Positions 7,257 to 62,771 are shown, counted from the first letter of the stretch. The stretch is 64,000 nt of DNA from Pedobacter sp. (GCA_050253415.1 JBFWJC010000002.1:640725-704724), one strand, 5' to 3'. A program made the numbers and translations. The notes: generated by a model not told the origin, from the letters alone.

Positions 7257-7262
7257 TGCTCC

Positions 7263-8666: not shown

Positions 8667-8668
8667 TG

Positions 8669-9025: not shown

Positions 9026-9046
9026 GGTGGCCTTCTCCATGTAACT

Positions 9047-10312: not shown

Positions 10313-10350
10313 GGTGATCCTCCCGGAGCGTTGTGCTCCTGTTTGTAGGG

Positions 10351-10668
10351 TCAGGCGAGCATCGCGCTGTCGATGTTGGTGAAAATACTTTCCTGCATGG
10401 CCTGCCGGTCGACGATGGTGATGACCAGGCTATTTTTGAGGCTGACCACCAGCGCGGTATGGTCGAGCAGTATCAGCGAATGGCGTCCGCCTTTGGCACG
10501 CAGGGATAGGACCGCCTCGCCCAGGCGGGTCCATTGGCCGGCGGTGAGTTCTATGCCGCGGCTGGCCATCCGGCTTAACGCATGTCGGGAAAAACGCAGC
10601 GCATTGGCGGCAGGGTTGGTCGGTGCCGCTGCGATGATGGGAGCGTGTCCGGAAGATGCTTGTTGCAT
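10351..10668 (-). CDS. Flagellar operon protein (small conserved protein usually between flgD and flgE)
   Basis: LRFSRHA..RM..RGI, KGGRHSL, IFTNIDSA motifs and position. Confidence 0.8.
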   Translation of the reverse strand: MQQASSGHAPIIAAAPTNPAANALRFSRHALSRMASRGIELTAGQWTRLGEAVLSLRAKGGRHSLILLDHTALVVSLKNSLVITIVDRQAMQESIFTNIDSAMLA

Positions 10669-10685
10669 GGTGTGCCTCCTTATGT

Positions 10686-11345: not shown

Positions 11346-11394
11346 GGGTGGCTCCTGCCTGGTTATGCTGCGATCCACGGGGATGCAGTTGTTT

Positions 11395-20197: not shown

Positions 20198-23100
20198 TCA
20201 GAACAGGTAACGGAACCTGATCCAGCTGCTATGCATAGTTGTGTCGTCGCCGAATTCACCGCCATACGCCAGCTCGGTAGCCAGCTGTTCTTTGCGGAAT
20301 CGTACCGAGGCGGAGATTGTGCCGGTTACGTCGTCCTGCTCCGACTTCACCGTCACCGGACCACTGCCCGCCACCGACTGGTTTACATCAAGCTCGTCGT
20401 CGGTCACCAGGTAGCGTATTCCAGCCGCCAACGACGGCGTTACTTCCACATTGCCGGCTTGCAGACGGGTCAGCCAGCGCAGCGATGCCAGAAAGTTAAC
20501 CTGATGCTCATCCATCGAGTCGCTGTGCAGATCCCAGTTGGAATCATCGGCGTCGGTGGTGAAGCTGTCGCGGTGCAACCACAGGTACTCCACACCGACT
20601 TCCGGCAGCAAAATCTGTCCGTTGTGTTCGAACAGGTGCCCGCCCAGCAAGGAGGTGCGGACCCCGTAGCTGTCGTAATCGGCGCTCTCTTGCTGCTCCA
20701 GGCTTACACCGGTCAAGCCTTCGTAGTCGTGCCAGCCGTAAAAGCCGGTAACTTGGGCGCGCCAGGTCCAGTCGTTTTGTCCGCCCATCAGGTGAACCCC
20801 GGCCGAAAGCACTTCCTGGTCTTCCCGGTTTTCGCTGTAGCCGGTACCGGTATAGTCGATGCCGGCATGTCCGAAGCCGAGATGGAAACCGTACAGGTTG
20901 CCGCGTGACTCCCGCTCGATGCCGGTCATGAAACCGACCAGATCGGCATCATACCCTGCCGGAGCGGCGTCTTTTTCGATGTTGGTATAATACGGCGTGA
21001 AGAAGAATCCCCCGCTCTCCACCTTGCCGGGTTGCGCTCCTGCATCGCTGGCTACCGTCTGGGCTGCAGCGTAGTGGCGGGGCGCATGGGCGGCCAGTCG
21101 GGACTGCAAGAAGCCGGTTGCCAAGCGCTGGCCGACCAGATTGGCGGATATGTTTACGGTGTTGCCTAACAGTCCGACACCTTCGAGTTGCGGCGAAGCG
21201 CCAGGCCGATAGGCCAGGGAGACCGTATCGTCGGCGCTGTCGTCGTTGCCCTGATCGTGGTACAGAGCCACCACGTCGGGGTTGATCGGGGAAGCGAGTC
21301 CGCTGAAAGTGCCGCTGACAAGCCCGCCGTCGCTGGTATCGAAAATCTGGTATGGGGTGTTTACCTGGGTGGTGCCGTTTATCATGGTCACACTGAGCAG
21401 AGCACCGTTCAGATTGAGTTCGGCATCTTCGCCCACATACAGGGAACCGACCGTCGGATCGCCGTCCAGGGTGAGATTGTAGTTGTTCAGCAGAGTCACG
21501 GTGCCGGCGTTGATATAGACTTCATAAACTGCGCTATCGGCAAAGGCCCGGATGATGCCGGTATTGGTCAGACTGCCGCTTTCAGCAAAATAAATGCCGG
21601 CGGCCGAAGACTCGTAAGCTTCGCCGGCCGTGGCGTTAACGGTGATGTCGGCACTGTTGGTGATAAAGGCTGTTCCCTTATTTACATAGATGCCGGCTGC
21701 ATCGGCATCGGCCGTCGATCCTTCGGCTGTTGCGGTGCCGCCATTGGCGGTGACGACAATGGCACCGCTGTTCATCAGATCGCCGGCGGTAACGATTCCG
21801 GCCGCATTCGCTTTAGCCGAGGAATTGGGACCGTTGGCCGTCCCCCCCGTGGCTGTTACGGTAATGGCGCCGCTGTTGGTCAGATCAGTGGTAGTTAGAA
21901 TGCCGATCGCTTCACCATATACCGAAGAGTTCGCACCTTCGGCAGTGCCCCCGATGGCCGTTATGCTGATGGCGCCGCTGTTGGTCATCTCATCGCTGGT
22001 TCGGATACCGTAAGCCCTTGCATTGACGACACTGCTTCCCGTTCCGTCGGTTGTCCCTCCCTCCGCCGTTACCGTAATCGCGGCTCTGTTGAGACCACCG
22101 CCATCCGACCATAGGCCGTAGGCGACGGCGATTGCATTCAATTCCGCGTCCGAATCGGAGGTGCCGTGGCCTCCTTCAGCCAGCACCGTAATCGTACCAT
22201 CGTTGGTCGCGGATAAATAGGTATGGACACCATAGGCATAAGCCTCGGCAACGGCATAGCTGCTGTCGGAGGAAGACGCCCCGCCCTCGGCGATCACCGA
22301 GATGGCGCCGCTGTTAACCATGCCTTCCGCCTCGATGCCAACTGCGCGGGCACTTGCATACGCATATTCGCTGGCGATGGCATCGCCGCCATGGGAGGTT
22401 ACGATGATAGCTCCGCTGTTGGTTACATCACCCCTGGAAGAAATGCCTGTTGCATTGCTGTGGGCTCGCGCCTCGGGATCCTCGAACCCCTCTCCGCCTA
22501 GACTGTCGGTGACAGCGTTGCCACCTGTGGCATTCACCCTGAGCTCACCGCTGTTGGTCACCGCTGTTTCCGATCTAATCGCCACAGCTTTGGCACTGGC
22601 ATCCGCGATATCAAACATTTGGTCATCAAGCGGGTTAGTGGCGCTGGCGGTTCCGCCTTCTGCAATTGTCTGGACTTGTCCGTCGTTGACAATCGCACCC
22701 TCGGCCAGCATGCCAGCTGCCTCGGCAGCGGCAAACGCGTAGGTGCCGTCTGTAAATTCTCCGTCGGTTATGGCCTCACCGCCAAGAGCGCCAACCAAAA
22801 GGGTGCTGTTGTTGTCGATCGCGCTACCGGTTTCGATGCCGACCGCTTTGGCACCGGCCAAGACCGTAGAAGCTCCCCCAGCGGATTTGGCCATTGCCAC
22901 ACTCATAATTGTCGCGGTATTGGTCACGTCTCCTTCGGCACCGATCCCCAGGCTATGGACCGATGCGTCGCTGGTCCCGGTAATGAATACACCCTCCTCG
23001 GATGTAACCAAGGCTCCGCCATCCGGGGTCTCATTTATGATGCTTTCCATTGTGCCCCCTAAGGCGAGGACCCTAAGCGCCGCGCTATTGTCGACCGTAT

Positions 23101-23611
23101 CACCGGAATCGATTCCAACCGCACTCACCGTGCTGATGGCGGAGGCCTCCGTGTCGGCTTCGGCTGTAACCGACGCAGTCCCGCCGAAGGCAAAAACCAC
23201 GACCTCTTTGCTATTGTCCACGGCGCCTTCGGTAGCGATGCCGGCCGCCTCGATCGCGGCTGTGGTTTCTTCGGTGCTGGTGGCCTTACCACCGTTGGCA
23301 TTCAGCACGATACTGCCCTGGTTTTGGATGTCGACTGCGTTAAGTGAATAAAAGCCGTAAGTTGAAAAGGAGACATTGGCATACGCTTCGGAATCATCAC
23401 CTCTACTAATGACTGAATAGTTGTCCGTATTGATAAACGGAGACGTAAAATCGGATACATCCAGCCCGTAAACAAAAGCACCGTCGTGCAATTCCGTCTC
23501 TTCAATAGTAATTGCGGCTGCAAAAGACACGCACATGGTGCACGCCAAAGCCCCGATCAGACAGCTAGTAAGCCATATAACCCTCGTATTGACGCCCATA
23601 TAAATCATCAT
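20198..23611 (-). CDS. Autotransporter (type Va) with repetitive Ala/Gly/Thr-rich passenger
   Basis: Signal peptide; about 15 xTNSGAIxVxAxGG-type repeats; C-terminal alternating beta-barrel pattern ending IRFRYLF; AAGGAGG RBS. Confidence 0.88.
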   Translation of the reverse strand: MMIYMGVNTRVIWLTSCLIGALACTMCVSFAAAITIEETELHDGAFVYGLDVSDFTSPFINTDNYSVISRGDDSEAYANVSFSTYGFYSLNAVDIQNQGSIVLNANGGKATSTEETTAAIEAAGIATEGAVDNSKEVVVFAFGGTASVTAEADTEASAISTVSAVGIDSGDTVDNSAALRVLALGGTMESIINETPDGGALVTSEEGVFITGTSDASVHSLGIGAEGDVTNTATIMSVAMAKSAGGASTVLAGAKAVGIETGSAIDNNSTLLVGALGGEAITDGEFTDGTYAFAAAEAAGMLAEGAIVNDGQVQTIAEGGTASATNPLDDQMFDIADASAKAVAIRSETAVTNSGELRVNATGGNAVTDSLGGEGFEDPEARAHSNATGISSRGDVTNSGAIIVTSHGGDAIASEYAYASARAVGIEAEGMVNSGAISVIAEGGASSSDSSYAVAEAYAYGVHTYLSATNDGTITVLAEGGHGTSDSDAELNAIAVAYGLWSDGGGLNRAAITVTAEGGTTDGTGSSVVNARAYGIRTSDEMTNSGAISITAIGGTAEGANSSVYGEAIGILTTTDLTNSGAITVTATGGTANGPNSSAKANAAGIVTAGDLMNSGAIVVTANGGTATAEGSTADADAAGIYVNKGTAFITNSADITVNATAGEAYESSAAGIYFAESGSLTNTGIIRAFADSAVYEVYINAGTVTLLNNYNLTLDGDPTVGSLYVGEDAELNLNGALLSVTMINGTTQVNTPYQIFDTSDGGLVSGTFSGLASPINPDVVALYHDQGNDDSADDTVSLAYRPGASPQLEGVGLLGNTVNISANLVGQRLATGFLQSRLAAHAPRHYAAAQTVASDAGAQPGKVESGGFFFTPYYTNIEKDAAPAGYDADLVGFMTGIERESRGNLYGFHLGFGHAGIDYTGTGYSENREDQEVLSAGVHLMGGQNDWTWRAQVTGFYGWHDYEGLTGVSLEQQESADYDSYGVRTSLLGGHLFEHNGQILLPEVGVEYLWLHRDSFTTDADDSNWDLHSDSMDEHQVNFLASLRWLTRLQAGNVEVTPSLAAGIRYLVTDDELDVNQSVAGSGPVTVKSEQDDVTGTISASVRFRKEQLATELAYGGEFGDDTTMHSSWIRFRYLF

Positions 23612-29469: not shown

Positions 29470-30669
29470 ATGCACTTTCCCATTACCGATATCGTAACCT
29501 TTGTAGGGAAAACGGATTGGGAGCTACGCAAGTTCCATGGAGAGGAATATTCCACTCATCGGGGTTCTACCTATAACTCATATTTGGTGCAGGATGAAAA
29601 AACTGCCCTTATCGATACCGTTTGGGCACCCTTCGCCAAGCACTATGTGGAAGAGTTGTTCCAAAAAATCTCTCCAGAAGATATCGACTTTGTCGTAGCC
29701 AATCATGCGGAGAGTGATCACAGCGGTGGTTTGCCGGAATTGATGCGGCATCTTCCCGGCAAACCAATCTACTGCACTGCAAATGCCGTTAAATCCTTAA
29801 AAGGTCATTACCATGCCGACTGGAACTTCCAGGTCGTCAAGACCGGAGACCGTCTGAGTCTCGGGCAACGAGAACTGATTTTCATTGAGGCGCCGATGCT
29901 GCATTGGCCCGATAGCATGTTCTGCTATCTGACCGGAGAGGATATTCTTTTTTCCAACGATGCCTTCGGGCAGCACCTGGCATCCGAGGATCTCTACAAC
30001 GATCGGGTCGATCCCTGTGAGCTGTGGGCGGAATGCATCAAATATTACGCCAACATCCTCACGCCTTTCAGTCCCCTGGTTTTGAAGAAGATACAACAAT
30101 TCGCCGGTCTTGATTTGCCGCTGAAGATGATCTGTCCCAGCCACGGAGTGATTTGGCGGGATAACCCCATGCAGATTGTCGAAAAATATCTGCAATGGGC
30201 CGACAATTATCAAGAGGATCAGATAACCCTTCTTTACGACACCATGTGGAACGGTACCCGTACCATGGCCGAGGCGATGGCGGCAGGAATCCACCAGGCT
30301 TCTCCGGATACGACAGTCAAGATTTTTAATTGTGCCCGGTCTGACAAAAACGATGTCATCACCGAAGTGTTTAAATCAAAGGCGATTCTGGTCGGATCTC
30401 CTACCATCAACCAGGGCATCCTTTCTGCGATGGCGGCTATTTTGGAAGAAATCCGCGGTCTGAAGTTTCGCGGCAAAAAGGCGGCAGCCTTTGGCGCCTA
30501 TGGATGGAGCGGCGAGGGTATCGGAATGATCGGCGACAAACTCAGTGAGGCCGGATTTGAACTGGTCAACAGTGGCTTGCGCCAGTTATGGGCTCCAGAC
30601 AGCGAAGCACTGCAACAATGTGCAGCGTTTGGCAAGGAATTCGTCGATCAAATCGGCCAGGTTCAGTAA
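29470..30669 (+). CDS. fprA: Flavodiiron protein (FprA/NorV-like, NO/O2 reductase; no rubredoxin domain)
   Basis: GSTYNSY, NHAESDH, HWPDSM, SNDAFGQH, PSHG, flavodoxin domain YDTMWNGT and GAYGWSG. Confidence 0.92.
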   Translation: MHFPITDIVTFVGKTDWELRKFHGEEYSTHRGSTYNSYLVQDEKTALIDTVWAPFAKHYVEELFQKISPEDIDFVVANHAESDHSGGLPELMRHLPGKPIYCTANAVKSLKGHYHADWNFQVVKTGDRLSLGQRELIFIEAPMLHWPDSMFCYLTGEDILFSNDAFGQHLASEDLYNDRVDPCELWAECIKYYANILTPFSPLVLKKIQQFAGLDLPLKMICPSHGVIWRDNPMQIVEKYLQWADNYQEDQITLLYDTMWNGTRTMAEAMAAGIHQASPDTTVKIFNCARSDKNDVITEVFKSKAILVGSPTINQGILSAMAAILEEIRGLKFRGKKAAAFGAYGWSGEGIGMIGDKLSEAGFELVNSGLRQLWAPDSEALQQCAAFGKEFVDQIGQVQ

Positions 30670-41309: not shown

Positions 41310-42671
41310 GTGATCCAACCTCAAAACGTCAAGCAGGTTTTATCCCGCCATTTGCTGACCGAGGGTTTCGACATCATCCTTGATCTGGACCGTTCGCAGG
41401 GCAGTTGGTTCGTGGATGAGCGCACCGGCGAGCGTTATCTCGATTTTTTCTCCATGTACGCGTCGATGGCGGTGGGCTACAACCATCCGCGCTTGTTGCA
41501 GGTGCGTGACCAACTGGGACAACTGGCGGTTAACAAGCCTTCCAATTCCGATGTCTATACCACCGCCATGGCGGAATTCGTCGATACCTTTGAGCGTATC
41601 GCCATGCCGCCGGAGATGCCGCATGTGTTCTTTATCGAAGGCGGTGCGCTGGCGGTGGAGAACGCCCTGAAGACCGCTTTTGACTGGAAGGTGCGCAAAA
41701 ACCTGGCCGCGCAACCGGGCAACGATGCCGGCAGTCAGGTGATCCACTTCCGTCAGGCGTTTCACGGTCGCTCCGGTTATACCCTGTCGCTGACCAACAC
41801 CTTCGATCCGCGCAAGACGAGGTTTTTCCCGAAATTCGACTGGCCGCGCATTATCAATCCCAAGCTTACTTTTCCCCTCGATGCCGAGAATCTGGTGCAG
41901 GTCCGTATTCTTGAAAACGAGGCCCTCGGGTCCATCAACCAGGTCCTCGAGGAGCAGGGCGAGGATATTGCGGCGCTGATTATCGAACCGATCCAGGGGG
42001 AGGGGGGCGACAACCATTTCCGCGCGGAATTTCTGCAGGGGTTGCGGCAGCTGTGCGATCGGCATGACATCCTGCTGATCTTCGACGAGGTGCAGACCGG
42101 CGTGGGGCTGACCGGCAAGTTCTGGGCGTTTGAGCATTTCGGCGTGCAACCCGACCTGTTGGCGTTCGGCAAAAAGACCCAGGTGTGCGGTATGCTGGCG
42201 TCGCGGCGAATCGACGAGATCTGCTGCCACGTGTTTCAGGAGCGTAGCCGCATCAACTCGACTTTTGGCGGCAACCTGATCGACATGGTGCGCTGCACCC
42301 ATATCCTGCGCATCATCGAGGAAGAGCAGTTGGTGGACAATGCCCAAGTGCAGGGAGAGCTGCTGCTGTCCGGGCTGCAGAAGCTGGCCGCCGAGTTTCC
42401 GCACCTTGTCACCAACCCTCGAGGGCGGGGCTTGATGTGCGCGTTCGATGCGCCCGACAGCCATACGCGGGACCAGTTGGTGAAGGCGTTTTTCCAACGG
42501 AAGCTGCTGCTGGTCGGCTGCGGTTCGCGCAGTATCCGGTTTCGTCCGCATCTGATCGTGACGGCCGCCGAGATCGCGCAAGCCATGGATATTATCCGCG
42601 ATGTGATGCGCAAGGGGGATTACGTGCATCTGGAAATAACCAAGGATCCCTGTCTGGGGATTGGAACATGA
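41310..42671 (+). CDS. lat: L-lysine 6-transaminase (class III PLP aminotransferase)
   Basis: NKPSNSDVYT, GALAVENALKTAFDWK, FHGRSGYTLSLTNT, EPIQGEGGD, DEVQTG, FGKKTQVCG, SRINSTFGG; GTG start. Confidence 0.9.
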   Translation: MIQPQNVKQVLSRHLLTEGFDIILDLDRSQGSWFVDERTGERYLDFFSMYASMAVGYNHPRLLQVRDQLGQLAVNKPSNSDVYTTAMAEFVDTFERIAMPPEMPHVFFIEGGALAVENALKTAFDWKVRKNLAAQPGNDAGSQVIHFRQAFHGRSGYTLSLTNTFDPRKTRFFPKFDWPRIINPKLTFPLDAENLVQVRILENEALGSINQVLEEQGEDIAALIIEPIQGEGGDNHFRAEFLQGLRQLCDRHDILLIFDEVQTGVGLTGKFWAFEHFGVQPDLLAFGKKTQVCGMLASRRIDEICCHVFQERSRINSTFGGNLIDMVRCTHILRIIEEEQLVDNAQVQGELLLSGLQKLAAEFPHLVTNPRGRGLMCAFDAPDSHTRDQLVKAFFQRKLLLVGCGSRSIRFRPHLIVTAAEIAQAMDIIRDVMRKGDYVHLEITKDPCLGIGT

Positions 42672-44266
42672 TGGGCGATTACCGGACACTGCTGGCGGAG
42701 AAACTGCGCGCCCGCATCGCCGGGCGGGTGCTGGCCGATGGCGAAGGTCTGCGGCCTTACACCCGCGATCAGAGCATCTACCACATCGAACCGTTAGTGG
42801 CGGCGTTGCCCGAGCATTTGGATGACGTATTGGAATTGGTGCGTTTTGCCGCCGAAGAGGGTGTGCCGCTTACCGCCCGGGGCGGCGGGTCGGGTACGGC
42901 GGGCAGCGCGCTGGGGGAGGGGATCGTTATGGCCCTGTCGCACAATGCATTCTGGGGGCGGCTTGAAGGGTTTGACGCCGGCGGCGGGCAGGCCAGGGTC
43001 GATTGCGCGGCGGGGGTGCTGCATAACGATCTGCAGAACTATCTGAAGCAGCGGGGCTATTTCCTGCCGGCGGATGTGTCGAGTGCCGATATCAGCCGCA
43101 TCGGCGGCAATATCGCCACCAAGGCCAGCGGTCCCCATGCCCTCAAGTACGGCTCCATCGACCGCTTCCTGGAGCGGGTGGTATTCGTCAGCGACCGGGG
43201 CGAGCTGGTCGACACCGGCGATGCCTCGAGCATCCCGATGCGTATTATGCGGCAACTGGTCGATCTGCAAAGCCGCATCCGCAGCGATGCCGGGGCGGTG
43301 AAGATCCTGCGGCAGCGCCAGGGGCGCAAAATCGCGAGCGGCTATAACCTGTTCGCATTTTTGGAGCCGTTGTCGCCGGGACAGTTGATCGCTCAACTGC
43401 TGGCCGGCAGTGTGGGCAGTCTCGGTCTGCTGATCGGTGCCACCTTGCGGGGCGAGATTTATGAGCGTCAGCGAGCGGCGGTGCTGGGGTATTTTTCCAG
43501 CATGGTCGAAGCGGGGCGGGCGGTGAATGCGTTACGCAATCTGCCTGTGGCCGCCATCGAAATCATCAGCCGAAAAACCGTGGCGGTACTGCAGCAGCAT
43601 ACCGACGTGCCGGCCAACATGGCCATGAATGCCCATCTGCTGTTGGTGGAATTGAACGGCCCCGGCTGCATGGAACAGGTCGAACGGGTTAAGCATGTAT
43701 TGGAGGGCAACGGCTTTCGCATGAGCGCGCCATGCCAGGTGGCCCTTGACGAGCCCGGCATCGAACAGCTATGGGCGCTGCGCAAGCAGATCCTGTGGCT
43801 GATTCGCCATCCCGAGCCGCATCTGCGCGCCCTGTCGGTGGTTAACGATGTAGGGGTGCCGCCCGAGCATCTGGCCGAATTCATTCATGAAGTGCAGAAG
43901 GTATTTGACCGGCACCAGATGGTGGTCCTTATTTACGGGCACGCCGGCAGTGGCAACCTCCATCTGCGGCCTTTGTTCGATGTAACCTTGCCGGATCTGC
44001 CGGGGCGGATCCAAAAAGTGGCCGATGCTGTGTACGAGGTGGTGTTTCGCTATGGCGGCACTATTTCCGCAGAGCACGGCATGGGGCGTTTGCGGGCGCC
44101 TTACCTGCAGCGCGAATGGGGCCCGGCACTGTATGGTTATATGCGCGAGCTCAAGGATATCTTTGATCCGCGGGGGATGTTCAATCCCGGGGTGGTGTTC
44201 AGTGATCGTCCTATCACCGAACACCTGCGCGATGATCTGGCTGACAAGGGAGGTGCGGCATGGTAG
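42668..44266 (+). CDS. FAD-binding oxidoreductase (GlcD/Dld/YdiJ-like 2-hydroxyacid dehydrogenase, no Fe-S domain)
   Basis: RGGGSGTAG, IGGNIAT.ASG, GS.G.LG, GHAGSGNLHLRP, SAEHGMG, FDPRGMFNPG; ATGA overlap with lat. Confidence 0.88.
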   Translation: MMGDYRTLLAEKLRARIAGRVLADGEGLRPYTRDQSIYHIEPLVAALPEHLDDVLELVRFAAEEGVPLTARGGGSGTAGSALGEGIVMALSHNAFWGRLEGFDAGGGQARVDCAAGVLHNDLQNYLKQRGYFLPADVSSADISRIGGNIATKASGPHALKYGSIDRFLERVVFVSDRGELVDTGDASSIPMRIMRQLVDLQSRIRSDAGAVKILRQRQGRKIASGYNLFAFLEPLSPGQLIAQLLAGSVGSLGLLIGATLRGEIYERQRAAVLGYFSSMVEAGRAVNALRNLPVAAIEIISRKTVAVLQQHTDVPANMAMNAHLLLVELNGPGCMEQVERVKHVLEGNGFRMSAPCQVALDEPGIEQLWALRKQILWLIRHPEPHLRALSVVNDVGVPPEHLAEFIHEVQKVFDRHQMVVLIYGHAGSGNLHLRPLFDVTLPDLPGRIQKVADAVYEVVFRYGGTISAEHGMGRLRAPYLQREWGPALYGYMRELKDIFDPRGMFNPGVVFSDRPITEHLRDDLADKGGAAW

Positions 44267-45609
44267 AGGAACAGGGATTTTTCTGGCAGCGGCACGCAGC
44301 GGCGGAGCAATTGGTTCTGGATGCCCTCGACGACCTCACCCGCAAGAACACCGCCCTTGCGAAATTGCGCCAGCGCCTGGCCGAGCAGGCAAGCTGCCGT
44401 TTATTCGATTGGGTCGATCACCTGCAACTGCCCGATACGCCAGAGCTGCGGGAACGTCTGGACGCCCTGCTTTTCATCCGACAACCCTATGGGGGACATG
44501 CGGCTTATTATCATCCGGGGGCCTTGCTGCCGGCAATGGTTTTGGTTCCCAATGTCATGAACGTCCATGGTGCAGTGGCCCTGCGCGTCGATAGTATCGC
44601 GGATTTTTTGCAGGCCAATAATTTTGTCGCCGCTATCGAGGGCAGCCCTTTCAGTCCCCTGCGGCGTGCCATGTGCCATTGCGAGGCCGGGGTAGAGTTG
44701 TTGGTGGTGGAGAGGCGCGGCAACCTGGGGTTCGATCCCGCCACCCGGCCCGCACATTGGTTGCAGGACTATCTGGCGGCCCTGGAATTGTGGCAGACCC
44801 GGCCGCGACTGGGCGCCGACGAAGATCGGTTATGGTTGGAGACCTTCCGCCGCACCGAACAGTTGGTGGCGCGGTTGGGCATGGATCTGGCCGCGCATGT
44901 CGTGTGCCGGGGCGAGCGGCGTTATTGGGAGGCACGCAATGCCGCCGGTCGCTTGCAGAAAAGCCGCCAGGATGTGCTGGGTCTGGGCTGGGGCAACCAC
45001 GACCATCATACCTTTCGCAGTTCGCGACGGCACTTTGCCCGCTTGGTCAAGCTGTTCTCCCGCCTCGGGTTTGTGGCGCGGGAGCGATTCTATGCCGGTG
45101 AACAGGCTGGCTGGGGGGCACAGGTCATGGAGAATCGCATCGCCGGCTTGAGCCTGTTTCTCGATGTTGATCTGGCACCGGAGGAAGTGGAGACCGATTT
45201 TTCCCGCGAGGAGTTGCCGGAGCGGGAAACCCTCGGCACCGTGGGGTTGTGGTGCGCCTTGCACGGCGACTCGATCTTCGCCGGGGGGATGCACCATCTT
45301 GCAGCGCGCTGCGATTTCGAGCGCCTTGTCTCCGACCTGGCCCGGTTTGGTGTTAAGTTCATGGCACCTTTCAGCGATTTTCCCTGGCTCAAACAGGCTT
45401 TCAGCGTTGGCGAGCGGTGGCCGGTTGATGCGGGTCGGTTGGAGATGCTGGTTATGAAAAAGCTGCTGAGTCGTGAACAGGCGGATAAATTTCTGGCTGA
45501 GGGCGCTATCGGCAGTCATCTTGAAAATATCCAGCGCGATGAAGGCTATAAAGGCTTCAACAAAAACAACGTCAGCGCTATTATCCGCAAGACCGACCCG
45601 CGCCTGTGA
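44260..45609 (+). CDS. Uncharacterised protein with DUF1338/HglS-like (VOC-fold) metal-binding motifs
   Basis: NHDHHTFRS, GMHHLAAR and GSHLENIQR...GYKGFN..N...I; overlaps the upstream gene; GGGAGG RBS. The coding call is firm; the family call is by eye. Confidence 0.6.
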   Translation: MVEEQGFFWQRHAAAEQLVLDALDDLTRKNTALAKLRQRLAEQASCRLFDWVDHLQLPDTPELRERLDALLFIRQPYGGHAAYYHPGALLPAMVLVPNVMNVHGAVALRVDSIADFLQANNFVAAIEGSPFSPLRRAMCHCEAGVELLVVERRGNLGFDPATRPAHWLQDYLAALELWQTRPRLGADEDRLWLETFRRTEQLVARLGMDLAAHVVCRGERRYWEARNAAGRLQKSRQDVLGLGWGNHDHHTFRSSRRHFARLVKLFSRLGFVARERFYAGEQAGWGAQVMENRIAGLSLFLDVDLAPEEVETDFSREELPERETLGTVGLWCALHGDSIFAGGMHHLAARCDFERLVSDLARFGVKFMAPFSDFPWLKQAFSVGERWPVDAGRLEMLVMKKLLSREQADKFLAEGAIGSHLENIQRDEGYKGFNKNNVSAIIRKTDPRL

Positions 45610-45752
45610 CCGGGCGGGTGGGATGTTTTTCGGCAAGACCAAACCCGTGGGTTATGCTATGGTTTGGCTTGGTCAAGCCTTTGAATTTGTTGTTATTAAA
45701 ATCACAAGTGATCGTTATTGCAAAATTCTAAACCACATTCTCAAAGGCTTAT

Positions 45753-46750: not shown

Positions 46751-47557
46751 ATGACCAGCCCGCAAATGATTTACCTGCTTTCCGATGCGACCGGCGAGAC
46801 TGCTGAGAAGATCGTGAACGCGGTTTTGACCCAGTTCCGGGATAAGCCGGTACGTATGCGGCGCATCAGCAACGTGCGTAACGAGACTACCGTGAAGCAA
46901 GGCCTCGAAGAGATCATGAAGAACCCGGGGATGGTGGTCTATACCATCGTCAACCGGGATCTTGCGCAATATATTCAGAACGAATGCGAGGAGAGGGGAC
47001 TGATGGCCTTTGACCTGGTGACGCCGCTGCTTTCCCAGTTCTCCAAATTTTTCGGGCGCTTGCCTGGGCAAACTCCGGGATTGTTACACGAGATGGATGA
47101 GGAATACTTTCGTCGCATCGAAGCTGTGGAGTTTACCGTCAAGCATGACGACGGCCAGGAAGTGCGTCACCTGACGCATGCGGATATTGTGCTGGTCGGG
47201 GTTTCCCGTACAAGCAAGACCCCCCTGTCCACTTACCTGGCCCATCTTGGCTGGAAGGTCGCCAACGTGCCGCTGGTGCTTGGGATCGATCCCCCCAAGG
47301 AACTGTTTCAGGTCGATCCCAGGCGGGTTGCGGCGCTGTATATCGATCCGCAGCGTCTGGTGGAGTTACGTTCGGCACGGCTCAAAAATCTCGGTCAGGA
47401 CCCGCGAGGAGCCTACGCCGGGATCGAAGAGATCGAGGAAGAACTGCGCTATGCCAAGGTGCTTTATCGTCGCAATGGTTGGACGACGATCAATGTTTCG
47501 GGCAAGGCGGTAGAGGAAACGGCCCATGAGGTGCTGGTCAAATTGAAAATGAAATGA
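46751..47557 (+). CDS. ppsR: PEP synthase / pyruvate,water dikinase regulatory kinase-pyrophosphorylase
   Basis: [43 protein letters not shown]. Confidence 0.93.
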
Positions 47558-48665: not shown

Positions 48666-48866
48666 GGCATCCTCTTAGACACACCTTGTCGAATGTAAGT
48701 CTCCTGCGCGGACTTTAAAATATTTCCCCTTTGGGTTCTACATAAATCGTCGGCAGGGGGTGGCAGCGCCTCCTTACGCGCGGATATCTGGTAAAATTTC
48801 ATAAAACACCGATCATGGTGGGGCGTCTTGAACTTTTAACCGTACGGCTGTAACGGGGAGGCACCG

Positions 48867-51275
48867 ATGACAGAGTTCACGCATATCATGTGGTTTGAGG
48901 ATATCGGTCTTTACGATTTGCCACTGGTGGGGGGGAAAAATGCCTCGCTGGGCGAGATGATCGGCAATCTGTCCGATCTGGGCATCAGGGTGCCCGGAGG
49001 GTTTGCCGTAACGGCCGAGGCGTATCGGTACTTTTTGCGTGAAACGGGGTTGGAAAAGCAAATCACAAACCTGTTGACCGATCTCGACACGGACAACATG
49101 GACAGTCTGGCGACGATCGGGCACCAGGTACGCCGGGCCATCCGCCATGCTGAATTGCCCGATGGTCTGGAACAGGCCATCCGTACCGCCTATGCCCAGA
49201 TGGAGCAGCAATATGGTACGGATTGCGATGTGGCGGTGCGTTCCAGTGCCACCGCAGAGGATCTGCCCGACGCTTCGTTTGCCGGTCAACAGGAAACCTA
49301 TCTCAATATTCGCGGCGCCGACGAACTGCTCAGCGCCTGCCGCAACTGTTTTGCCTCTCTGTTCACCAACCGGGCGCTGTCCTACCGGGTCCATCATGGA
49401 TTCGATCACATGGCCGTGGCGCTGTCCATCGGGGTGCAGAAGATGGTGCGTTCGGATCTGGCCAGCGCCGGAGTCATGTTCACCATCTCGACGGAGACCG
49501 GTTTTCGCGATGTGGTGTTGATCAACGGCGCATGGGGACTGGGTGAAAACGTGGTGCGTGGTGCGGTCAATCCCGATGAATTTTTTGTTTTCAAGCCGAC
49601 CCTCAAGCAGGGCTATCGCCCGATCATCAGCAAGCATGTCGGCAGCAAAAAGAAGAAAATTATTTACAGCATCAATAACGGTCCGCAACCGACCCGCGAG
49701 ATCACGGTACCGATTGAGGATCGCGAACGTCTTTGCCTGGACGACGACGAGGTGCTGGCCCTGGCGCGCATGGCGTGCGTGATCGAAGACCATTACAAGC
49801 GGCCTATGGACATCGAATGGGCCAAGGACGGTGAAACAGGCGAGCTGTTTATCGTACAGGCCCGACCGGAAACCGTGCAATCTTCCCTGCAGGGCAACGT
49901 ACTCGAGGAATACCATCTGCGGCAGCGCGGTGACGTCATCACCCAGGGGCGCGCGGTTGGCAGCAAGATCGGCGTCGGCAAGGCCATTGTCATCAAGGAC
50001 GCCTCCGAAATCGCACGGTTTCAGGCCGGTGCCGTGCTGGTGACCGATATGACCGACCCCGACTGGGAACCGGTCATGAAAAAAGCCGCGGCCATCGTCA
50101 CAAACCGTGGCGGTCGTACCTGCCATGCGGCTATTGTCAGCCGTGAACTCGGTATCCCCTGCGTTATCGGTACCGCCGATGGCACGACGACCATTGCCGA
50201 CGGCGATGCGGTGACCGTATGCTGTGCCGAGGGGGAAACCGGCTTCGTTTATCGGGGTGAGCTGGCTTTTGAAATTAAGAAAACCGACCTCGAAGAGCTT
50301 AAACGGCCGCGCACAAAAATCATGATGAATATCGGTAATCCCGAACAAGCCTTCGGATTGCGGCGCATACCGAACGACGGTGTCGGTTTGGCGCGTCTCG
50401 AATTCATTATCAATACCGTCATCCAGGCCCATCCTATAGCCCTGTTGCATCCGGACCGGATTGCGGATGCGGATGAGCGCGAAAAGATCGCGCAACTGAT
50501 TACCGGGTATCCCGATGGCGGCGAATATTTCGTGGATAAGCTCGCCCAGGGTGTGGCCACGTTGGCGGCGGCGTTTTATCCCAACGACGTGATTGTGCGC
50601 ATGAGCGATTTCAAGAGTAACGAATACGCCAACCTGCTTGGCGGACGGGCTTTCGAGCCGGAAGAATCGAACCCCATGATTGGTTTTCGCGGGGCCTCGC
50701 GCTATTATGACGATCGCTATCGCGAGGGCTTTATGCTGGAGTGCCGAGCCATGAAGCGGGTACGCGAGGAAATGGGGCTCACCAACGTCAAACTGATGAT
50801 TCCCTTCTGTCGTACCGTTGAAGAAGGGCGGCGGGTGGTCGAGGTCATGGCCGGGGCAGGACTGGAAAGGGGCAAGGATGGTCTCGAGCTGTATGTGATG
50901 TGCGAAATTCCGTCCAACGTGGTGCTGGCCGAAGAGTTCGCCGAGGTGTTCGACGGTTTTTCCATCGGTTCCAACGACCTGACCCAGCTGTTGTTGGGGC
51001 TGGATCGCGACTCCGAGATCGTCGCCCATCTCTACGATGAGCGCAACGAGGCAGTCACGCGCATGATCGCCGACGTCATCCGGCGAGTCAAGGCGGTAGG
51101 GTGTAAAATCGGTATCTGCGGACAGGCACCGAGCGATTATCCGGAGTTCGCCGCGTTTCTGGTCGAGTGCGGCATTGACAGTATCTCGCTCAATCCGGAT
51201 ACGGTGCTGGCCACCACCTTGAGTATTCTGGAACTGGAAGCGAAGTTGAATAAGCATCGCGAGGCTGGAGGTTAA
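48867..51275 (+). CDS. ppsA: Phosphoenolpyruvate synthase
   Basis: VGGKNASLGEM, AVRSSATAED, QARPETV, GGRTCHAAI phospho-His, SIGSNDLTQ, ICGQAPSD. Confidence 0.97.
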   Translation: MTEFTHIMWFEDIGLYDLPLVGGKNASLGEMIGNLSDLGIRVPGGFAVTAEAYRYFLRETGLEKQITNLLTDLDTDNMDSLATIGHQVRRAIRHAELPDGLEQAIRTAYAQMEQQYGTDCDVAVRSSATAEDLPDASFAGQQETYLNIRGADELLSACRNCFASLFTNRALSYRVHHGFDHMAVALSIGVQKMVRSDLASAGVMFTISTETGFRDVVLINGAWGLGENVVRGAVNPDEFFVFKPTLKQGYRPIISKHVGSKKKKIIYSINNGPQPTREITVPIEDRERLCLDDDEVLALARMACVIEDHYKRPMDIEWAKDGETGELFIVQARPETVQSSLQGNVLEEYHLRQRGDVITQGRAVGSKIGVGKAIVIKDASEIARFQAGAVLVTDMTDPDWEPVMKKAAAIVTNRGGRTCHAAIVSRELGIPCVIGTADGTTTIADGDAVTVCCAEGETGFVYRGELAFEIKKTDLEELKRPRTKIMMNIGNPEQAFGLRRIPNDGVGLARLEFIINTVIQAHPIALLHPDRIADADEREKIAQLITGYPDGGEYFVDKLAQGVATLAAAFYPNDVIVRMSDFKSNEYANLLGGRAFEPEESNPMIGFRGASRYYDDRYREGFMLECRAMKRVREEMGLTNVKLMIPFCRTVEEGRRVVEVMAGAGLERGKDGLELYVMCEIPSNVVLAEEFAEVFDGFSIGSNDLTQLLLGLDRDSEIVAHLYDERNEAVTRMIADVIRRVKAVGCKIGICGQAPSDYPEFAAFLVECGIDSISLNPDTVLATTLSILELEAKLNKHREAGG

Positions 51276-58221: not shown

Positions 58222-58319
58222 CTATTTTGGACGTAAAGGTTTTTTTTTCGCGGCTGCGCGTGAAAAGAAGGGCGATTTTTTCCCTTAGCGAAGTGGCGAA
58301 ACCAAGGAAGGAGCGATCC

Positions 58320-59495
58320 ATGTCCGAAAAAATCGTCCTTCTCAGCGCGGTACGTACTGCAATTGGCAGGTTTGGCGGTACCCTGAGAGAAATCCCGGCT
58401 CCCCGGCTCGGCGCCGCGGTGATCGAACAGGCCGTGGCACGGTCCGGCCTTCTCAGCAGCCAGGTGGACGAGGTCATTATGGGTAACGTGCTGTCCGCGG
58501 GGCTGGGACAGAATCCGGCCAGGCAAGCGGCCATGGTTGCCGGTATCCCGGTGGCGGTTGGAGCGGTTACCGTGAACATGGTCTGCGGTTCCGGGCTCAA
58601 GGCGGTTCTGCTGGCGGCTCAGGCGATAAAGGCCGGCGATGCCAGTGTGATCGTGGCTGGCGGGATGGAGAATATGAGCGCGGCTCCGCATCTGCTGGAT
58701 GGAATGCGCTGGGGGCTCAGAGCCGGGGATGCGCAGTTGGTCGATTCCTTGCTGCACGATGGTTTGCTCGACGCTTTTCATAAAATCCGCATGGGGCAGA
58801 CCGGGGAGCGCATTGCCCGCAAATATGGTCTGACCCGGCAGGAGGCGGATGCTTTCAGCCTGAGAAGCCAGCAACTCGCGGCCAAGGCGCAACGAGAAGG
58901 GGCCTTCGATCGGGAGATTGTGCCGGTGTCGGTGGCCGGCGTGGATTTTGCCACGGACGAATGCGTGAGGGAGGATATGACTCTGGCACGGTTGGCGAAG
59001 CTGGCGCCCGCTTTTGCCGAAAACGGCGTGCTGACGGCCGGCAACAGCTCCCAGATCAGCGATGGCGCCGCAGCGCTGGTTGTGGCATCAGCGGGCCGAA
59101 GCGCGGAACTGAATCTGCTTCCGCTGGCCGAAATCGTCCATTATGCGGAGGCCGGAACCGCACCGGACGATGTGATGGAAGCACCGATCCCCGCAGTCAG
59201 GAAACTGCTGGCTGAAACCGGTCTCAGCATGGCCGATATCGATCTGGTGGAGCACAATGAGGCGTTTTCCGTCGCCTCGTTGGCGGTGGCGGGAGAACTG
59301 GGAATCGAAATGCAAAAATTCAACGTGCGCGGTGGGGCTGTGGCCTTGGGACACCCCATCGGGGCCAGCGGCGCCAGGATAGTGGTCACCTTGCTGCATG
59401 CCCTGCAGGCGCAGGGGCTGAAAAGAGGTCTGGCAACTCTGTGTATGGGTGGCGGTAACGGCCTGGCGATACTTATCGAGCGAACCGGAGGGTAA
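58320..59495 (+). CDS. Acetyl-CoA C-acyltransferase (classical thiolase)
   Basis: NMVCGSG nucleophile, NEAF, GHPIGASG, LCMGGG. Confidence 0.95.
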   Translation: MSEKIVLLSAVRTAIGRFGGTLREIPAPRLGAAVIEQAVARSGLLSSQVDEVIMGNVLSAGLGQNPARQAAMVAGIPVAVGAVTVNMVCGSGLKAVLLAAQAIKAGDASVIVAGGMENMSAAPHLLDGMRWGLRAGDAQLVDSLLHDGLLDAFHKIRMGQTGERIARKYGLTRQEADAFSLRSQQLAAKAQREGAFDREIVPVSVAGVDFATDECVREDMTLARLAKLAPAFAENGVLTAGNSSQISDGAAALVVASAGRSAELNLLPLAEIVHYAEAGTAPDDVMEAPIPAVRKLLAETGLSMADIDLVEHNEAFSVASLAVAGELGIEMQKFNVRGGAVALGHPIGASGARIVVTLLHALQAQGLKRGLATLCMGGGNGLAILIERTGG

Positions 59496-59497
59496 AC

Positions 59498-60346
59498 ATG
59501 ACGATCAGAAACATCACGGTCATCGGGGCCGGTACCATGGGTACCGGTATTGCCCGGGCCGCTGCCACCAGCGGCTTTGCCGTGGCTCTGGTGGACCGCA
59601 GCGAAGCCAAAGCCACCAGCGGCTTGAATCGGATCCGCAGCGGTCTGGAAAAACAGGTTGCGAAGAACATCATGGATGGCGCAGAAAAAGATGCTGTGCT
59701 CGCCCGGATCGGGATCTGCTGCAGCCTGGATGACTGCCGGGAGACGGATCTGGTGATTGAAGCGGTGGCCGAAAAAGAAGGGGTTAAAAAAGAAATATTC
59801 CAGGCCCTGGATGCACTTTGTCCCAAGCATACCATCTTCGCCAGCAATACTTCCTCCATCTCTATCACGCGTCTTGCCGGAGCCACCGGTCGCCCGGACC
59901 GTTTTGTCGGCATGCATTTCATGAATCCGGCCCACGTCATGAAGCTGGTAGAGGTGGTTACCGGGCTGCTCACCTCGGCGGAAACCGTCAGCGCCATCCG
60001 TACGGTGGCTGAGACGATGCACAAGACCGCGTTGGTGGTGGCCGATTCGCCCGGTTTTGTCGTCAATCGAGTATTGATGCCGATGATCAACGAGGCTATC
60101 GCCTGCCTGCAGGAAGACATAGCCTCCCGCGATGACATCGATGCGGTCATGAAGCTCGGCGCCCATCACCCCATGGGGCCTCTGGAACTGGCGGATTTCA
60201 TCGGACTCGATGTCTGCTTGGAAATCCTCAAGGTCCTGCATGCCGAACTGGGCGAAAAATACCGGCCCGGAACCCTGCTGCGCAACATGGTTGCCGCCGG
60301 CAAGCTGGGCCGCAAAAGCGGCACAGGCTTTTATGATTACGATTGA
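59498..60346 (+). CDS. 3-hydroxybutyryl/3-hydroxyacyl-CoA dehydrogenase
   Basis: GAGTMG, ASNTSS, GMHFMNP, PGFVVNR, PMGPL.LAD.IGLD. Confidence 0.95.
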   Translation: MTIRNITVIGAGTMGTGIARAAATSGFAVALVDRSEAKATSGLNRIRSGLEKQVAKNIMDGAEKDAVLARIGICCSLDDCRETDLVIEAVAEKEGVKKEIFQALDALCPKHTIFASNTSSISITRLAGATGRPDRFVGMHFMNPAHVMKLVEVVTGLLTSAETVSAIRTVAETMHKTALVVADSPGFVVNRVLMPMINEAIACLQEDIASRDDIDAVMKLGAHHPMGPLELADFIGLDVCLEILKVLHAELGEKYRPGTLLRNMVAAGKLGRKSGTGFYDYD

Positions 60347-60405
60347 GAGGCGGATAAATCGGAATCGTAAGCTGCTCCCGATGAATGGATAAAACAGTGG
60401 GAACA

Positions 60406-61440
60406 ATGTCCAGACGGTTGTTTCTCTGGCTGACGGCGGCCGCCGTGTTTCTACTGACCTTTCGGAGTTCCGTGGCCGGCGACCTGCTGTTTTTTCGACC
60501 CTCGCGCCGGGAGAAACCCCGGGTTCCGGAGGATCGGTTTGTTTCGGAGGGAAAGGCTCTGGTGGGGGTGGCCGGCGGCAGCGAGCCGTTTGAGGATCGT
60601 ATCCGCCGGGCTGTCGATCTTATCGGCGGTTTCGAACGGCTGAACATCCGCGGCAGGACCGTGCTGGTCAAGCCGAATGTGGTCTCCGGAAATCCCAGTC
60701 CGACCACCACCAGCCCTGAGGTCGTGGCGGCGGTGGTGCGTCTGCTGTACGCCCAGGGAGCTCGTCAGGTGGTGGTGGGTGACATGTCGGCTCTGTTATC
60801 CCGGGCCACGCTGGAAAATATGCAACGTTGCGGTATCAGACAGGCGGCGGAACAAGCCGGCGCCAAGGTGGTGGCCTTCGAGGATTTCGACTGGGTCGAG
60901 GTGCCGTTGCCCGATGGCCGTTACCTGAAAAAAGCCTTGGTCTCCGAATGGCTTTATCGGGTAGATATTATCGTCAACCTGCCGGTGGTCAAGACTCACC
61001 GTTCCGCATCCTATACCATCTGCCTGAAGAACTTTATCGGATGTACCCATTTTCGTCAGCGCCCTTATCTGGTCGACCGCCGTCATTGGGAGGAACTGGT
61101 GGCCGAATTCAACCTGGCCTGTCGCCCGGACCTGAATATTGTCGATGCCACCACGACCATGATCGAAGGCGGACCCTGGGAGGGAACCTCCGCTCCCACC
61201 GGGCTTATCATCGCCAGCGGGGATCGGGTGGCTGCCGACATTGTCGGGCTTGGCCTGATCCGTTCCTTCGGCCGCTGGCAGCCGGTAACCGAAAAGGGGG
61301 TCTGGGAGCAGCGGCAGGTTCAACATGCCCTGATCCTTGGCCTGGGACGGGGCAGGGATGGAATCACGCTGCGCAGCACGGACGGAGATGCGAAATTTCA
61401 GGAACTGATGTCCGCCGTGCGGAGGGAAACCGGACTTTGA
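60406..61440 (+). CDS. DUF362-domain protein with a possible Tat signal
   Basis: SRRLFL leader; VLVKPN, NLPVVKTH, LKNFIG, D.VAAD; start could be 60385. Confidence 0.8.
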   Translation: MSRRLFLWLTAAAVFLLTFRSSVAGDLLFFRPSRREKPRVPEDRFVSEGKALVGVAGGSEPFEDRIRRAVDLIGGFERLNIRGRTVLVKPNVVSGNPSPTTTSPEVVAAVVRLLYAQGARQVVVGDMSALLSRATLENMQRCGIRQAAEQAGAKVVAFEDFDWVEVPLPDGRYLKKALVSEWLYRVDIIVNLPVVKTHRSASYTICLKNFIGCTHFRQRPYLVDRRHWEELVAEFNLACRPDLNIVDATTTMIEGGPWEGTSAPTGLIIASGDRVAADIVGLGLIRSFGRWQPVTEKGVWEQRQVQHALILGLGRGRDGITLRSTDGDAKFQELMSAVRRETGL

Positions 61441-61482
61441 CGGTACTTTCAAGACCTCCCGCGCCTACCGGGTAATGCCCTT

Positions 61483-61530
61483 TTGACAGGGCAACAAAGC
61501 TCTTTATACTTGTAAATACAGCAGTATTTA
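61483..61530 (+). promoter_or_regulatory. Sigma70 promoter with downstream palindrome
   Basis: TTGACA (61483)-N16-TATACT (61505), then TAAATAC-N4-GTATTTA at 61513-61530. Confidence 0.6.
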
Positions 61531-61625
61531 ATTAATTGACAACGCCGGGATAATCAGTGCGGGGATGCCCCGTCAGTTCCTCCTCTTTGTGGATGCTTAC
61601 ATCGGACGTGATTGGAGGTTATGCC

Positions 61626-62771
61626 GTGGAATTCGGGTTGACGGACGAGCAGACGGCTTTGCAGCGCAAGGCCAGGGAATTTGCCGAAAAAGAGCTCTTG
61701 CCGGGGGTTGAACGACGTGACCGGGAGGGGGAGTTCCCCGGCGATGCCCTAAAAAAGCTGGGACAGCTGGGATTGATGGGGCTGGTTTTTCCATCGGAAT
61801 ACGGCGGCTGCGGCCGGGACTTTTTGAGCTATACCCTCGTCGTGGAGGAATTGGCACGTGTCGATGCCAGTGTGGCCATCACTCTGCTGGCCCATACCCT
61901 GTGCGCATCCCATATCCTGACTTTCGGCACGGAGCAACAGAAACGGCAATTTGTCACGCCCCTGGCCCGGGGAGAAGTAATCGGTGCCTGGGCTCTGACC
62001 GAACCTGAGGGGGGCAGTGACGCTGCGGCGCTCAAAACCCGAGCCGTTAAAGTGGCCGACGGGTGGCGACTGAGCGGCAACAAATATTTCATCACCAACG
62101 GCTCCCGCGCCGACATCATGGTGGTGATGGCTTCCTCCGATCCCTCGCAGGGCGCCAGGGCCATTTCCGCGTATGTCGTCGAGGGCAACCCCGCCGGGCT
62201 CAGGCGGGGCAATAACCTTCTCAAGCTTGGCTTTCAGTCCAGCGACACGACGGCCCTTCTCTTCAAGGAGGTATCGGTGCCGGGTGACCGGCGCCTGGGC
62301 GAAGACGGCCAGGGTTTCGCCCAGGCCATGACGGTGCTCGATGCCGGTCGCATCGGTCTGGCGGCGATGGCAGTGGGGATCGCTCGCGGTTGTCTTGAAC
62401 AGAGTCTGCGTTACGCCAAAAAACGTCAGGCGTTTGGCAAGCCGATCGCCGATTTCCAGGCCATTCAGGGCATGCTGGCCGATATGGCTACCGAGATCGA
62501 CGCGGCCCGCCTGCTGTTGCGGCGCGCGGCAGAACTCAAGGAAGCTGGGCGGCCGTACACCCGGGAGGCGGGCATGGCCAAGCTGTTTGCCTCGGAAACG
62601 GTCATGCGCGCGGGGATCAAGGCGGTACAGATTCACGGGGGACATGGCTATACCCGAGCCCATCCGGTGGAACGGTTCTTTCGGGAAGCCAAACTTTGTG
62701 AAATCGGCGAGGGGACATCGGAGATCCAGCGCATGGTCATCGCGCGGGAGTTGTTGAAAAAAGCAGAGTGA
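61626..62771 (+). CDS. Acyl-CoA dehydrogenase
   Basis: [59 protein letters not shown] and GTG. Confidence 0.95.

Follow-up and report, generated by a model that had tools for sequence, protein, structure and literature searches.

Until the description of HglS in 2019-2020, the step from 2-oxoadipate onwards was the last gap in the lysine catabolism of bacteria and plants. In the D-lysine branch of Pseudomonas putida, 2-aminoadipate is reported to be converted to 2-oxoadipate, then to D-2-hydroxyglutarate (D-2-HG) and finally to 2-oxoglutarate (10.1101/450254, PMC7286885). The metal ligands of HglS, a DUF1338 (PF07063) enzyme, are given as His70, His226 and Glu294, while the distal carboxylate of 2-oxoadipate is held by its Arg74, an R74A mutant being inactive (PMC7286885). 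The characterised enzymes in the structural neighbourhood of DUF1338, hydroxymandelate synthase (HMS) and HPPD are all O2-dependent, decarboxylating hydroxylases of 2-oxoacids, as summarised in the same report (PMC7286885). Genes for DUF1338 proteins have been reported in operons with lat, the gene for L-lysine 6-transaminase, in Rhodococcus and M. tuberculosis (10.1101/450254). Here we describe a three-gene operon (41310-45609, + strand) within a stretch of 64,000 nucleotides from Pedobacter sp. (GCA_050253415.1, JBFWJC010000002.1:640725-704724), referred to below as the window, with positions counted from its first letter. The operon combines lat with a gene for a flavin adenine dinucleotide (FAD)-linked 2-hydroxyacid dehydrogenase and with a gene for a 449-residue protein that belongs to no named family.

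From sequence and a predicted structure, we place somewhat better than even confidence in the reading that this operon is a lysine breakdown unit, in which the 449-residue protein turns 2-oxoadipate into 2-hydroxyglutarate with Fe(II) and O2, and the FAD enzyme carries the product on to 2-oxoglutarate. A preliminary description of the same DNA, made from the sequence alone, had proposed this route. As a well-supported prediction it appears to be largely right about function, while the family membership it gave to the third protein, and the strength of the oxygen paradox it raised, are corrected below. In the proposed sequence of reactions Lat, as its family membership shows, transfers the L-lysine epsilon-amino group onto 2-oxoglutarate, which leaves 2-aminoadipate semialdehyde/piperideine-6-carboxylate (P6C). 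An aldehyde dehydrogenase (ALDH) and an aminotransferase encoded elsewhere would then carry this product to 2-oxoadipate. The fold, the motifs and the gene context suggest that the 449-residue protein would bind Fe(II) through H249, H346 and E422; the metal site would chelate the 2-oxo-carboxylate end of 2-oxoadipate while R253 grips the distal carboxylate, and O2-driven decarboxylation and hydroxylation would yield 2-hydroxyglutarate. The FAD enzyme would oxidise this 2-hydroxy acid to 2-oxoglutarate. The O2 needed could come from micro-oxic exposure, for which the genome is equipped.

Organization of the operon

Open reading frame (ORF) calls and translations give three overlapping genes on the + strand. 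The first, lat (41310..42671), starts with a GTG at 41310 preceded by GGAGGG, and the match to the LAT model begins 3 residues further in. Its TGA (42669-42671) overlaps the ATG (42668) of the gene for the 532-residue FAD enzyme (42668..44266) as ATGA, and the TAG of this second gene (44264-44266) overlaps the ATG (44260) of the third (44260..45609) as ATGGTAG. Both junctions were read directly and bear out the translational coupling noticed earlier; the second gene begins at 42668 rather than at 42665. The sequence AAGGGAGG is located 6 nt 5' of the third ATG. After the third stop codon there is a terminator-like hairpin with a T-run (about 45601..45630, + strand, seen in a consensus scan only), which is likely to be the end of the operon; the next gene begins at 45938. 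The gap upstream of lat is 476 bp long, and a simple scan of it found no sigma-70-like promoter. No Rfam family, such as a lysine riboswitch, was matched upstream of lat, the sole Rfam match in the window being a tRNA. The trio is flanked by a gene for a HEAT-repeat protein upstream, and by genes for an inositol monophosphatase, a phosphoenolpyruvate (PEP)-synthase regulator and PEP synthase downstream. None of these has an evident connection to lysine, so the trio is a stand-alone, compact and translationally coupled operon. In the proposed reading its genes would form one unit of transcription and translation.

The lat product, a pyridoxal-phosphate enzyme of the class III aminotransferases, matches TIGR03251 (LAT_fam) over its full length with 766.9 bits, above the curated equivalog cut-off of 520.8, and also matches PF00202. 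It is assigned as L-lysine 6-transaminase, in agreement with the preliminary description. The FAD enzyme has the domains FAD_binding_4 (PF01565) and FAD-oxidase_C (PF02913). Its top NCBIfam match is YdiJ (NF049975), of which it covers positions 41-541 of 1018 with 209.5 bits. This is far under the full-length cut-off of 1350 because the Fe-S/CCG half is absent; compared with YdiJ, the enzyme is the N-terminal catalytic half alone. In the PDB it is related, with scores that are alike, to glycolate oxidase, to D-lactate dehydrogenases and to the D-2-HG dehydrogenase of humans (D-2-HGDH). Alignment with E. coli YdiJ and with a YdiJ-like protein from Chlamydiota brings out a common motif, YGHxxxGxxHxRP. 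In human D-2-HGDH the Zn/substrate residues are reported as His434, His441, Glu475, His476 and Arg386, and the C5-carboxylate binders as Thr390, Lys401, Tyr432 and Asn443 (PMC7801405). A phmmer alignment to 6lpn indicates that Arg386, His434, His441, Glu475, His476 and Tyr432 are retained. Domains, NCBIfam match and PDB relatives all point to the GlcD/D-2-HG-dehydrogenase type, consistent with the label first given to the gene. The enzyme is assigned as a D-2-hydroxyacid dehydrogenase, for which a dicarboxylate is a plausible substrate.

Predicted fold of the 449-residue protein

An AlphaFold (AF2) model, built with an alignment of 67 family sequences, has a pLDDT of 94.9 and a pTM of 0.93. 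It contains a central, partly closed vicinal oxygen chelate (VOC)-type beta-barrel with flanking helices, as in HglS/DUF1338. A VIA search of 48,161 chains, independent of Foldseek, placed three DUF1338 chains at the top: 6w1k, the rice HglS with bound 2-oxoadipate (Z 16.8, root-mean-square deviation (rmsd) 3.0, 209 residues aligned), 3iuz (Z 16.6) and 3lho (Z 15.5). These were followed by HMS (Z 12.8), YdcJ (2rjb, 12.0) and HPPD (9.7). A second VIA comparison gave Z 12.3-12.4 for P. putida HglS (6w1g/6w1h), 12.0-12.3 for YdcJ, and 12.4-13.8 for HMS/HPPD, the last with an rmsd of 2.5-2.8 and 16-20% identity across the catalytic domain. The top matches of Foldseek are HMS and HPPD (E 2.4e-9 and below), with TM-scores of just 0.24-0.40 because the two domains are differently arranged.

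The structural matches to DUF1338, HMS and HPPD span model residues ~166/200-449. The N-terminal residues ~41-155 resemble small glyoxalase-like proteins (Z 6.4-6.8, VIA), and residues 166-238 are a helical insert. As modelled, the protein is composed of an N-terminal VOC-like domain (~40-155) that looks non-catalytic, a helical segment, and a DUF1338-like catalytic unit (~166-449). A resemblance of three short motifs to blocks of DUF1338 had been noted by eye in the preliminary description; the comparison supports it with a predicted VOC fold to which the DUF1338/HglS structures come closest.

Conserved residues and the candidate metal site

The three motifs lie where the preliminary description placed them: NHDHHTFRS at residues 246-254 (from nucleotide 44995), MHHLAAR at 344-350 (45289) and GSHLENIQR..GYKGFN at 418-434 (45511). 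The first block, HDHHTFRS (H247-S254, 44998..45021, + strand), holds H249 as candidate ligand and R253 as candidate binder of the distal carboxylate, with a beta-strand at 247-253. The second, HHLAAR (H345-R350, 45292..45309, + strand), holds the candidate ligand H346 in a strand at 346-350. The third, HLENIQR..GYKGF (H420-N434, 45517..45561, + strand), has the candidate ligand E422, with R426 four residues further on, in a strand at 416-426. Among the 67 aligned sequences H249 is found in 62, R253 in 63, H345 in 60, H346 and E422 in 59 each, R426 in 64 and F433 in 63. The motifs are therefore not due to chance.

In VOC enzymes, the strands that carry the metal ligands are the opening one of every beta-alpha-beta-beta-beta module and the final one. 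In the AF2 model H249, H346 and E422 occupy these positions, from which we infer that they converge on one metal site. In an alignment of YdcJ with HglS, the ligand residues stand within HGAIR, NHLTPR and GEIEQR. The spacing from the first His to an Arg four residues on is identical in the present protein (HHTFR against HGAIR), as is that from the Glu to an Arg (LENIQR against GEIEQR), and HHLAAR at H346 resembles the NHLTPR around His226 (xHLxxR). R253, at H249+4, is thus the probable counterpart of HglS Arg74, a match made by motif and strand rather than by superposition. The rice HglS, FLO7 (6w1k), has a reported Arg64 (PMC7286885). By the ranges of the 6w1k alignment (model 203-449, chain 15-311), the chain positions that correspond to H249 and R253 are approximately 61 and 65, so that R253 would lie close to Arg64 of FLO7.

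Conservation also bears on the idea that the protein, despite its VOC fold, is inert as a catalyst or serves regulation, and is simply co-transcribed. Motif residues are missing from the family members that diverge most (35% identity or less), as might be expected of such a protein. Against this, some 50 columns of the family alignment reach a conservation of 85% or higher, those of every candidate ligand among them, and the gene is translationally coupled and keeps its place in the operon in other genomes. We regard an inert protein as very improbable.

An unnamed protein family

By sequence, the protein stands apart from DUF1338. Neither Pfam nor NCBIfam holds a model that it matches; Pfam Glyoxalase comes closest, at E 0.19 and under the cut-off, and PF07063 is not matched at E<=10. 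PDB sequence searches, with the single sequence (phmmer) and with a profile (hmmsearch), returned no DUF1338 chain; the one row obtained, MsrA/B at E 0.42, is a chance match. A search of the ESM Atlas returned solely the family's own unnamed clusters. Homologues are numerous: among 8,000 scored candidates (representatives of 90%-identity clusters), 6,178 have E<=0.001, and a second, independent search gave 708 clusters at 50% identity with E<=0.001, 199 of them with E<=1e-30. At 87% identity, the Syntrophotalea carbinolica protein Pcar_2440, annotated as hypothetical, is the nearest named relative; no literature on it was found. Most members carry the name hypothetical in the databases, and a few are called 'HPPD-like putative hemolysin' (JGI). 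Among the papers listed for hydroxyglutarate synthase, supplements aside, titles and abstracts describe no second family, and related literature searches brought up just the two HglS papers and unrelated work.

The preliminary description had placed the protein in a divergent clade of HglS. The likeness to HglS stands in the fold, whose nearest structures are DUF1338/HglS. A clade inside DUF1338 does not, as the tests with Pfam, hhalign (see below) and PDB sequences were all empty. On present evidence the protein represents a separate, unnamed family in the structural neighbourhood of DUF1338 rather than a clade of PF07063.

The distribution of the two families fits a replacement of HglS by the new one, although the samples are small and both families, like LAT, are sparse. 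Canonical PF07063 was found neither in the genome of the window, which is 100% complete by markers, nor in five of five other genomes that carry the new family. In the samples, none of 201 genomes from the same phylum as the window and one of 151 from Verrucomicrobiota have it, the corresponding figures for the new family being two and four. The operon is patchy among relatives: counting this genome, 8 of 26 have it, as do 3 of 6 other genomes of the genus.

Gene neighbourhoods in other genomes

To survey the surroundings of the family gene in other genomes, one genome per species was scanned and the best 80 of at least 581 encoding stretches were kept; partner genes were called by tblastn and ORF clustering. 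These 80 loci cover Thermodesulfobacteriota, Nitrospirota, Chlamydiota, Verrucomicrobiota, Planctomycetota, Chloroflexota, Acidobacteriota and others. A lat gene is found in 18 loci, an ALDH of the P6C-dehydrogenase type in 18 and a GlcD/YdiJ-type FAD enzyme in 24, with at least one of these partners in 39. All three of the ALDHs sampled (from the Verrucomicrobiota locus L057, the Nitrospirota locus L007 and L013 of Desulfogranum marinum) score 774-786 bits and so pass the curated 730-bit cut-off for L-piperidine-6-carboxylate dehydrogenase. The survey, which the preliminary description had suggested for lat and ALDH7, thus returned a linkage to lat, P6C dehydrogenase and YdiJ-like genes.

Gene order varies with lineage. 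P6C dehydrogenase, lat, FAD enzyme and family gene follow one another in L007, L014 and L035 (Nitrospirota, Desulfuromonadales), and P6C dehydrogenase, lat and family gene in L013. The order in Verrucomicrobiota is lat, P6C dehydrogenase, family gene, often with genes for acyl-CoA dehydrogenase, a FadJ-like protein and thiolase (CoA, coenzyme A). The family gene of Chlamydiota adjoins a gene for a YdiJ-like protein of 950-970 residues (570 bits, below the cut-off). In a FastTree tree of 76 family members, linkage to lat or P6C dehydrogenase occurs on both sides of the midpoint (deepest) split. The linkage to lat is not due to chance, because LAT is rare (two of the 151 sampled Verrucomicrobiota genomes).

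The loci L015, L023, L027, L031, L040, L043 and L047, from environmental chlamydiae, share a conserved block, at the end of which the family gene stands; it encodes Pth, S6, S18, L9, a GHMP kinase, ADP-heptose epimerase and heptose-7-phosphate kinase.

The window itself contains, 12.6 kb from the operon, a cluster of genes for thiolase, 3-hydroxybutyryl-CoA dehydrogenase, a DUF362 protein and acyl-CoA dehydrogenase (58227-62771, + strand), all of them generic by NCBIfam. Beta-oxidation genes of this sort flank the family in Verrucomicrobiota. The cluster was considered as a possible glutaryl-CoA route and is not connected with the operon here, its acyl-CoA dehydrogenase being generic with a best match of 423 bits, below the cut-off, to an acryloyl-CoA-reductase-like model.

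Substrate and missing steps

A number of observations weigh against the proposed conversion of 2-oxoadipate. PF07063 is matched by none of the 67 family members at E<=1, and hhalign gives the family profile a probability of 0.7% against YdcJ and of 0.2% against a 16-sequence DUF1338 alignment, the latter composed of long forms only, whereas the nearest structures are short forms. D304 (67/67), H335 (63/67) and H420 (57/67) are conserved, and no counterpart of them was found in the DUF1338 motifs. No ALDH of the genome reaches the P6C-dehydrogenase cut-off of 730 bits, the best being a generic protein with 385.6, and a 2-aminoadipate transaminase was found in none of the operons examined. In the FAD enzyme, positions that bind the C5-carboxylate in human D-2-HGDH are changed (Thr390 to Leu, Lys401 to Val, Asn443 to Arg), Tyr432 being kept. 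Lat, ALDH and FAD oxidase genes are all lacking from 41 of the 80 loci, many of which are on short contigs or chlamydial, and three of the four family carriers among the 151 Verrucomicrobiota genomes have no LAT match at E<=1e-80. The neighbours in Verrucomicrobiota are genes for acyl-CoA dehydrogenase, FadJ-like protein and thiolase, not for a 2-HG dehydrogenase, and a CoA route fits them equally well. Many hosts of the family, finally, are strict anaerobes.

Part of this evidence suits a different substrate. The protein could belong to the same class of intramolecular Fe(II)/O2 2-oxoacid dioxygenases and act on another 2-oxoacid, the link to lysine being limited to some clades, or its product could enter a CoA-dependent route. 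The loci with none of the three partners, the Verrucomicrobiota operons in which the FAD oxidase is missing, and the invariant and unexplained D304 all favour this. So do the small distance of HMS/HPPD from the best DUF1338 chains (only 3-4 Z units) and the position of the chlamydial loci beside heptose-kinase and heptose-epimerase genes. The last point loses force because these genes lie in the conserved ribosomal-protein block, which looks like inherited synteny and not a functional link. Two further observations speak for 2-oxoadipate: R253 at His+4 matches the very residue that sets the 2-oxoadipate specificity of HglS, which proved strict in a panel of 2-oxoacids, and a P6C dehydrogenase above the cut-off lies directly upstream in three phyla. 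Another 2-oxoacid as substrate is, on balance, unlikely, though far from negligible.

The conversion of 2-oxoadipate remains our preferred reading. As no P6C dehydrogenase is recognisable in the genome and no transaminase in the operon, less specific enzymes must supply both steps, or else the route differs. The FAD enzyme as a stand-in for the missing P6C dehydrogenase was considered and rejected, since the two occur together in three loci (L007, L014, L035).

Oxygen

An O2-consuming enzyme in an anaerobic gene context had been presented as something of a paradox. Such an enzyme is indeed unusual here; it is not paradoxical, because the genome encodes two terminal oxidases (cytochrome bd, 598 bits, and the heme-copper oxidase subunit I COX1, 510 bits), the window encodes a flavodiiron protein, and a DUF1338 protein has been named from a metagenome-assembled genome (MAG) of Desulfuromusa. 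Micro-oxic operation is plausible as the simplest reading. The flavodiiron protein (29470-30669, + strand) has metallo-beta-lactamase-like ODP and flavodoxin domains, and its score on the PRK11921 model ('anaerobic nitric oxide reductase flavorubredoxin') is 723.5 bits, above the cut-off of 635. Such an O2/NO-detoxifying enzyme is characteristic of anaerobes.

In four-ligand VOC isomerases, one ligand is placed on strand four of the first module. In the AF2 model, D302 and D304 lie on this strand, and D304, H335 and H420 could belong to a modified or four-ligand metal site. An O2-independent VOC isomerase, epimerase or lyase, similar to glyoxalase I or methylmalonyl-CoA epimerase and acting on a lysine-derived acid, would suit strict anaerobes. 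Carriers of the family include Desulfogranum marinum, Geoalkalibacter and MAGs of Brocadiales, Aminicenantes and Nitrospirota, and both glyoxalase I and methylmalonyl-CoA epimerases are present in the fold lists at Z 8-9. The best structural matches exceed these by 4-8 Z units and are all O2-dependent decarboxylating hydroxylases. The adjacent FAD enzyme suits a 2-hydroxy acid as product, and lineages that include aerobes (such as Verrucomicrobium, Chthoniobacterales and Solibacter) commonly carry the family as well. With these points, the terminal oxidases and the Desulfuromusa protein taken into account, O2-independent chemistry is distinctly unlikely, and the Fe(II)/O2 reaction is preferred.

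Other features of the window

A block of flagellar genes (flagellin-like, FlgK, FlgE, FlgD, FliD) is located at 5308-12693 (- strand). The stretch 14527-19783 (- strand) encodes a hybrid sensor kinase of 1405 residues with three periplasmic solute-binding (SBP_bac_3) stretches and PAS, HisKA/HATPase and receiver domains and, after it, a response regulator with an HD domain of the HD-GYP type. An ORF of 1137 residues (20198-23611, - strand) has no Pfam match at E<=1e-5, and the next ORF, of 171 residues, is likewise without a match. Downstream of the operon, a lytic transglycosylase gene on the opposite strand lies between the genes for the PEP synthase regulatory kinase/pyrophosphorylase (46751-47557) and for PEP synthase (48867-51275). 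The long ORF antisense to the latter gene, at 48813-51257, is no more than its shadow.

Comparison with known systems

Should the proposed role be correct, a second family, seemingly unrelated in sequence, would close the 2-oxoadipate gap in phyla where HglS is scarce or missing in the samples, and a large family would gain a name. Predictions of lysine use would then improve for Verrucomicrobiota, for environmental chlamydiae and for bacteria that reduce metals or sulfate. An O2-requiring catabolic enzyme in organisms that are grown as strict anaerobes would raise a clear question of its own, and the family would provide a structural intermediate for relating HPPD/HMS to the DUF1338 enzymes. 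A more speculative proposal, which we think rather improbable, is that the family makes up an unnamed fourth line of intramolecular 2-oxoacid dioxygenases that bridges the two-domain HPPD/HMS plan and the single-barrel DUF1338 enzymes and has replaced HglS in the lysine catabolism of Chlamydiota, Verrucomicrobiota, Nitrospirota and Desulfuromonadales. In the strict anaerobes among the carriers, it would then either link the breakdown of lysine to the scavenging of trace O2 or perform an evolved O2-independent reaction at a metal site modified by D304, H335 and H420.

The nearest fold for residues ~166-449 is that of the HglS/DUF1338 proteins (PP_5260, 6w1g/6w1h; FLO7, 6w1k; YdcJ, 2rjb; 3iuz; 3lho), and as in DUF1338 systems the gene is partnered in its operon with lat and a YdiJ-type FAD dehydrogenase. 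Unlike HglS, the protein has an extra N-terminal VOC-like domain of ~150 residues, and its candidate ligands are spaced as 249/346/422 instead of 70/226/294. Its predicted plan, an N-terminal VOC domain that looks non-catalytic and a C-terminal domain with a candidate 2-His-1-Glu site, recalls that of HPPD and HMS, while it differs from them in the arrangement of the domains, as reflected in the low TM-scores, in the helical insert, and in a gene context of lysine instead of tyrosine. Set beside the lat-amaB(pcd)-aminotransferase-hglS-ydiJ route of P. putida, the operon likewise flanks its candidate HglS step with lat and a YdiJ-like enzyme. It departs from that route in assigning the HglS step to another family, in using the N-terminal half of YdiJ only, and in having its P6C dehydrogenase and transaminase outside the operon or in no recognisable form in the genome.

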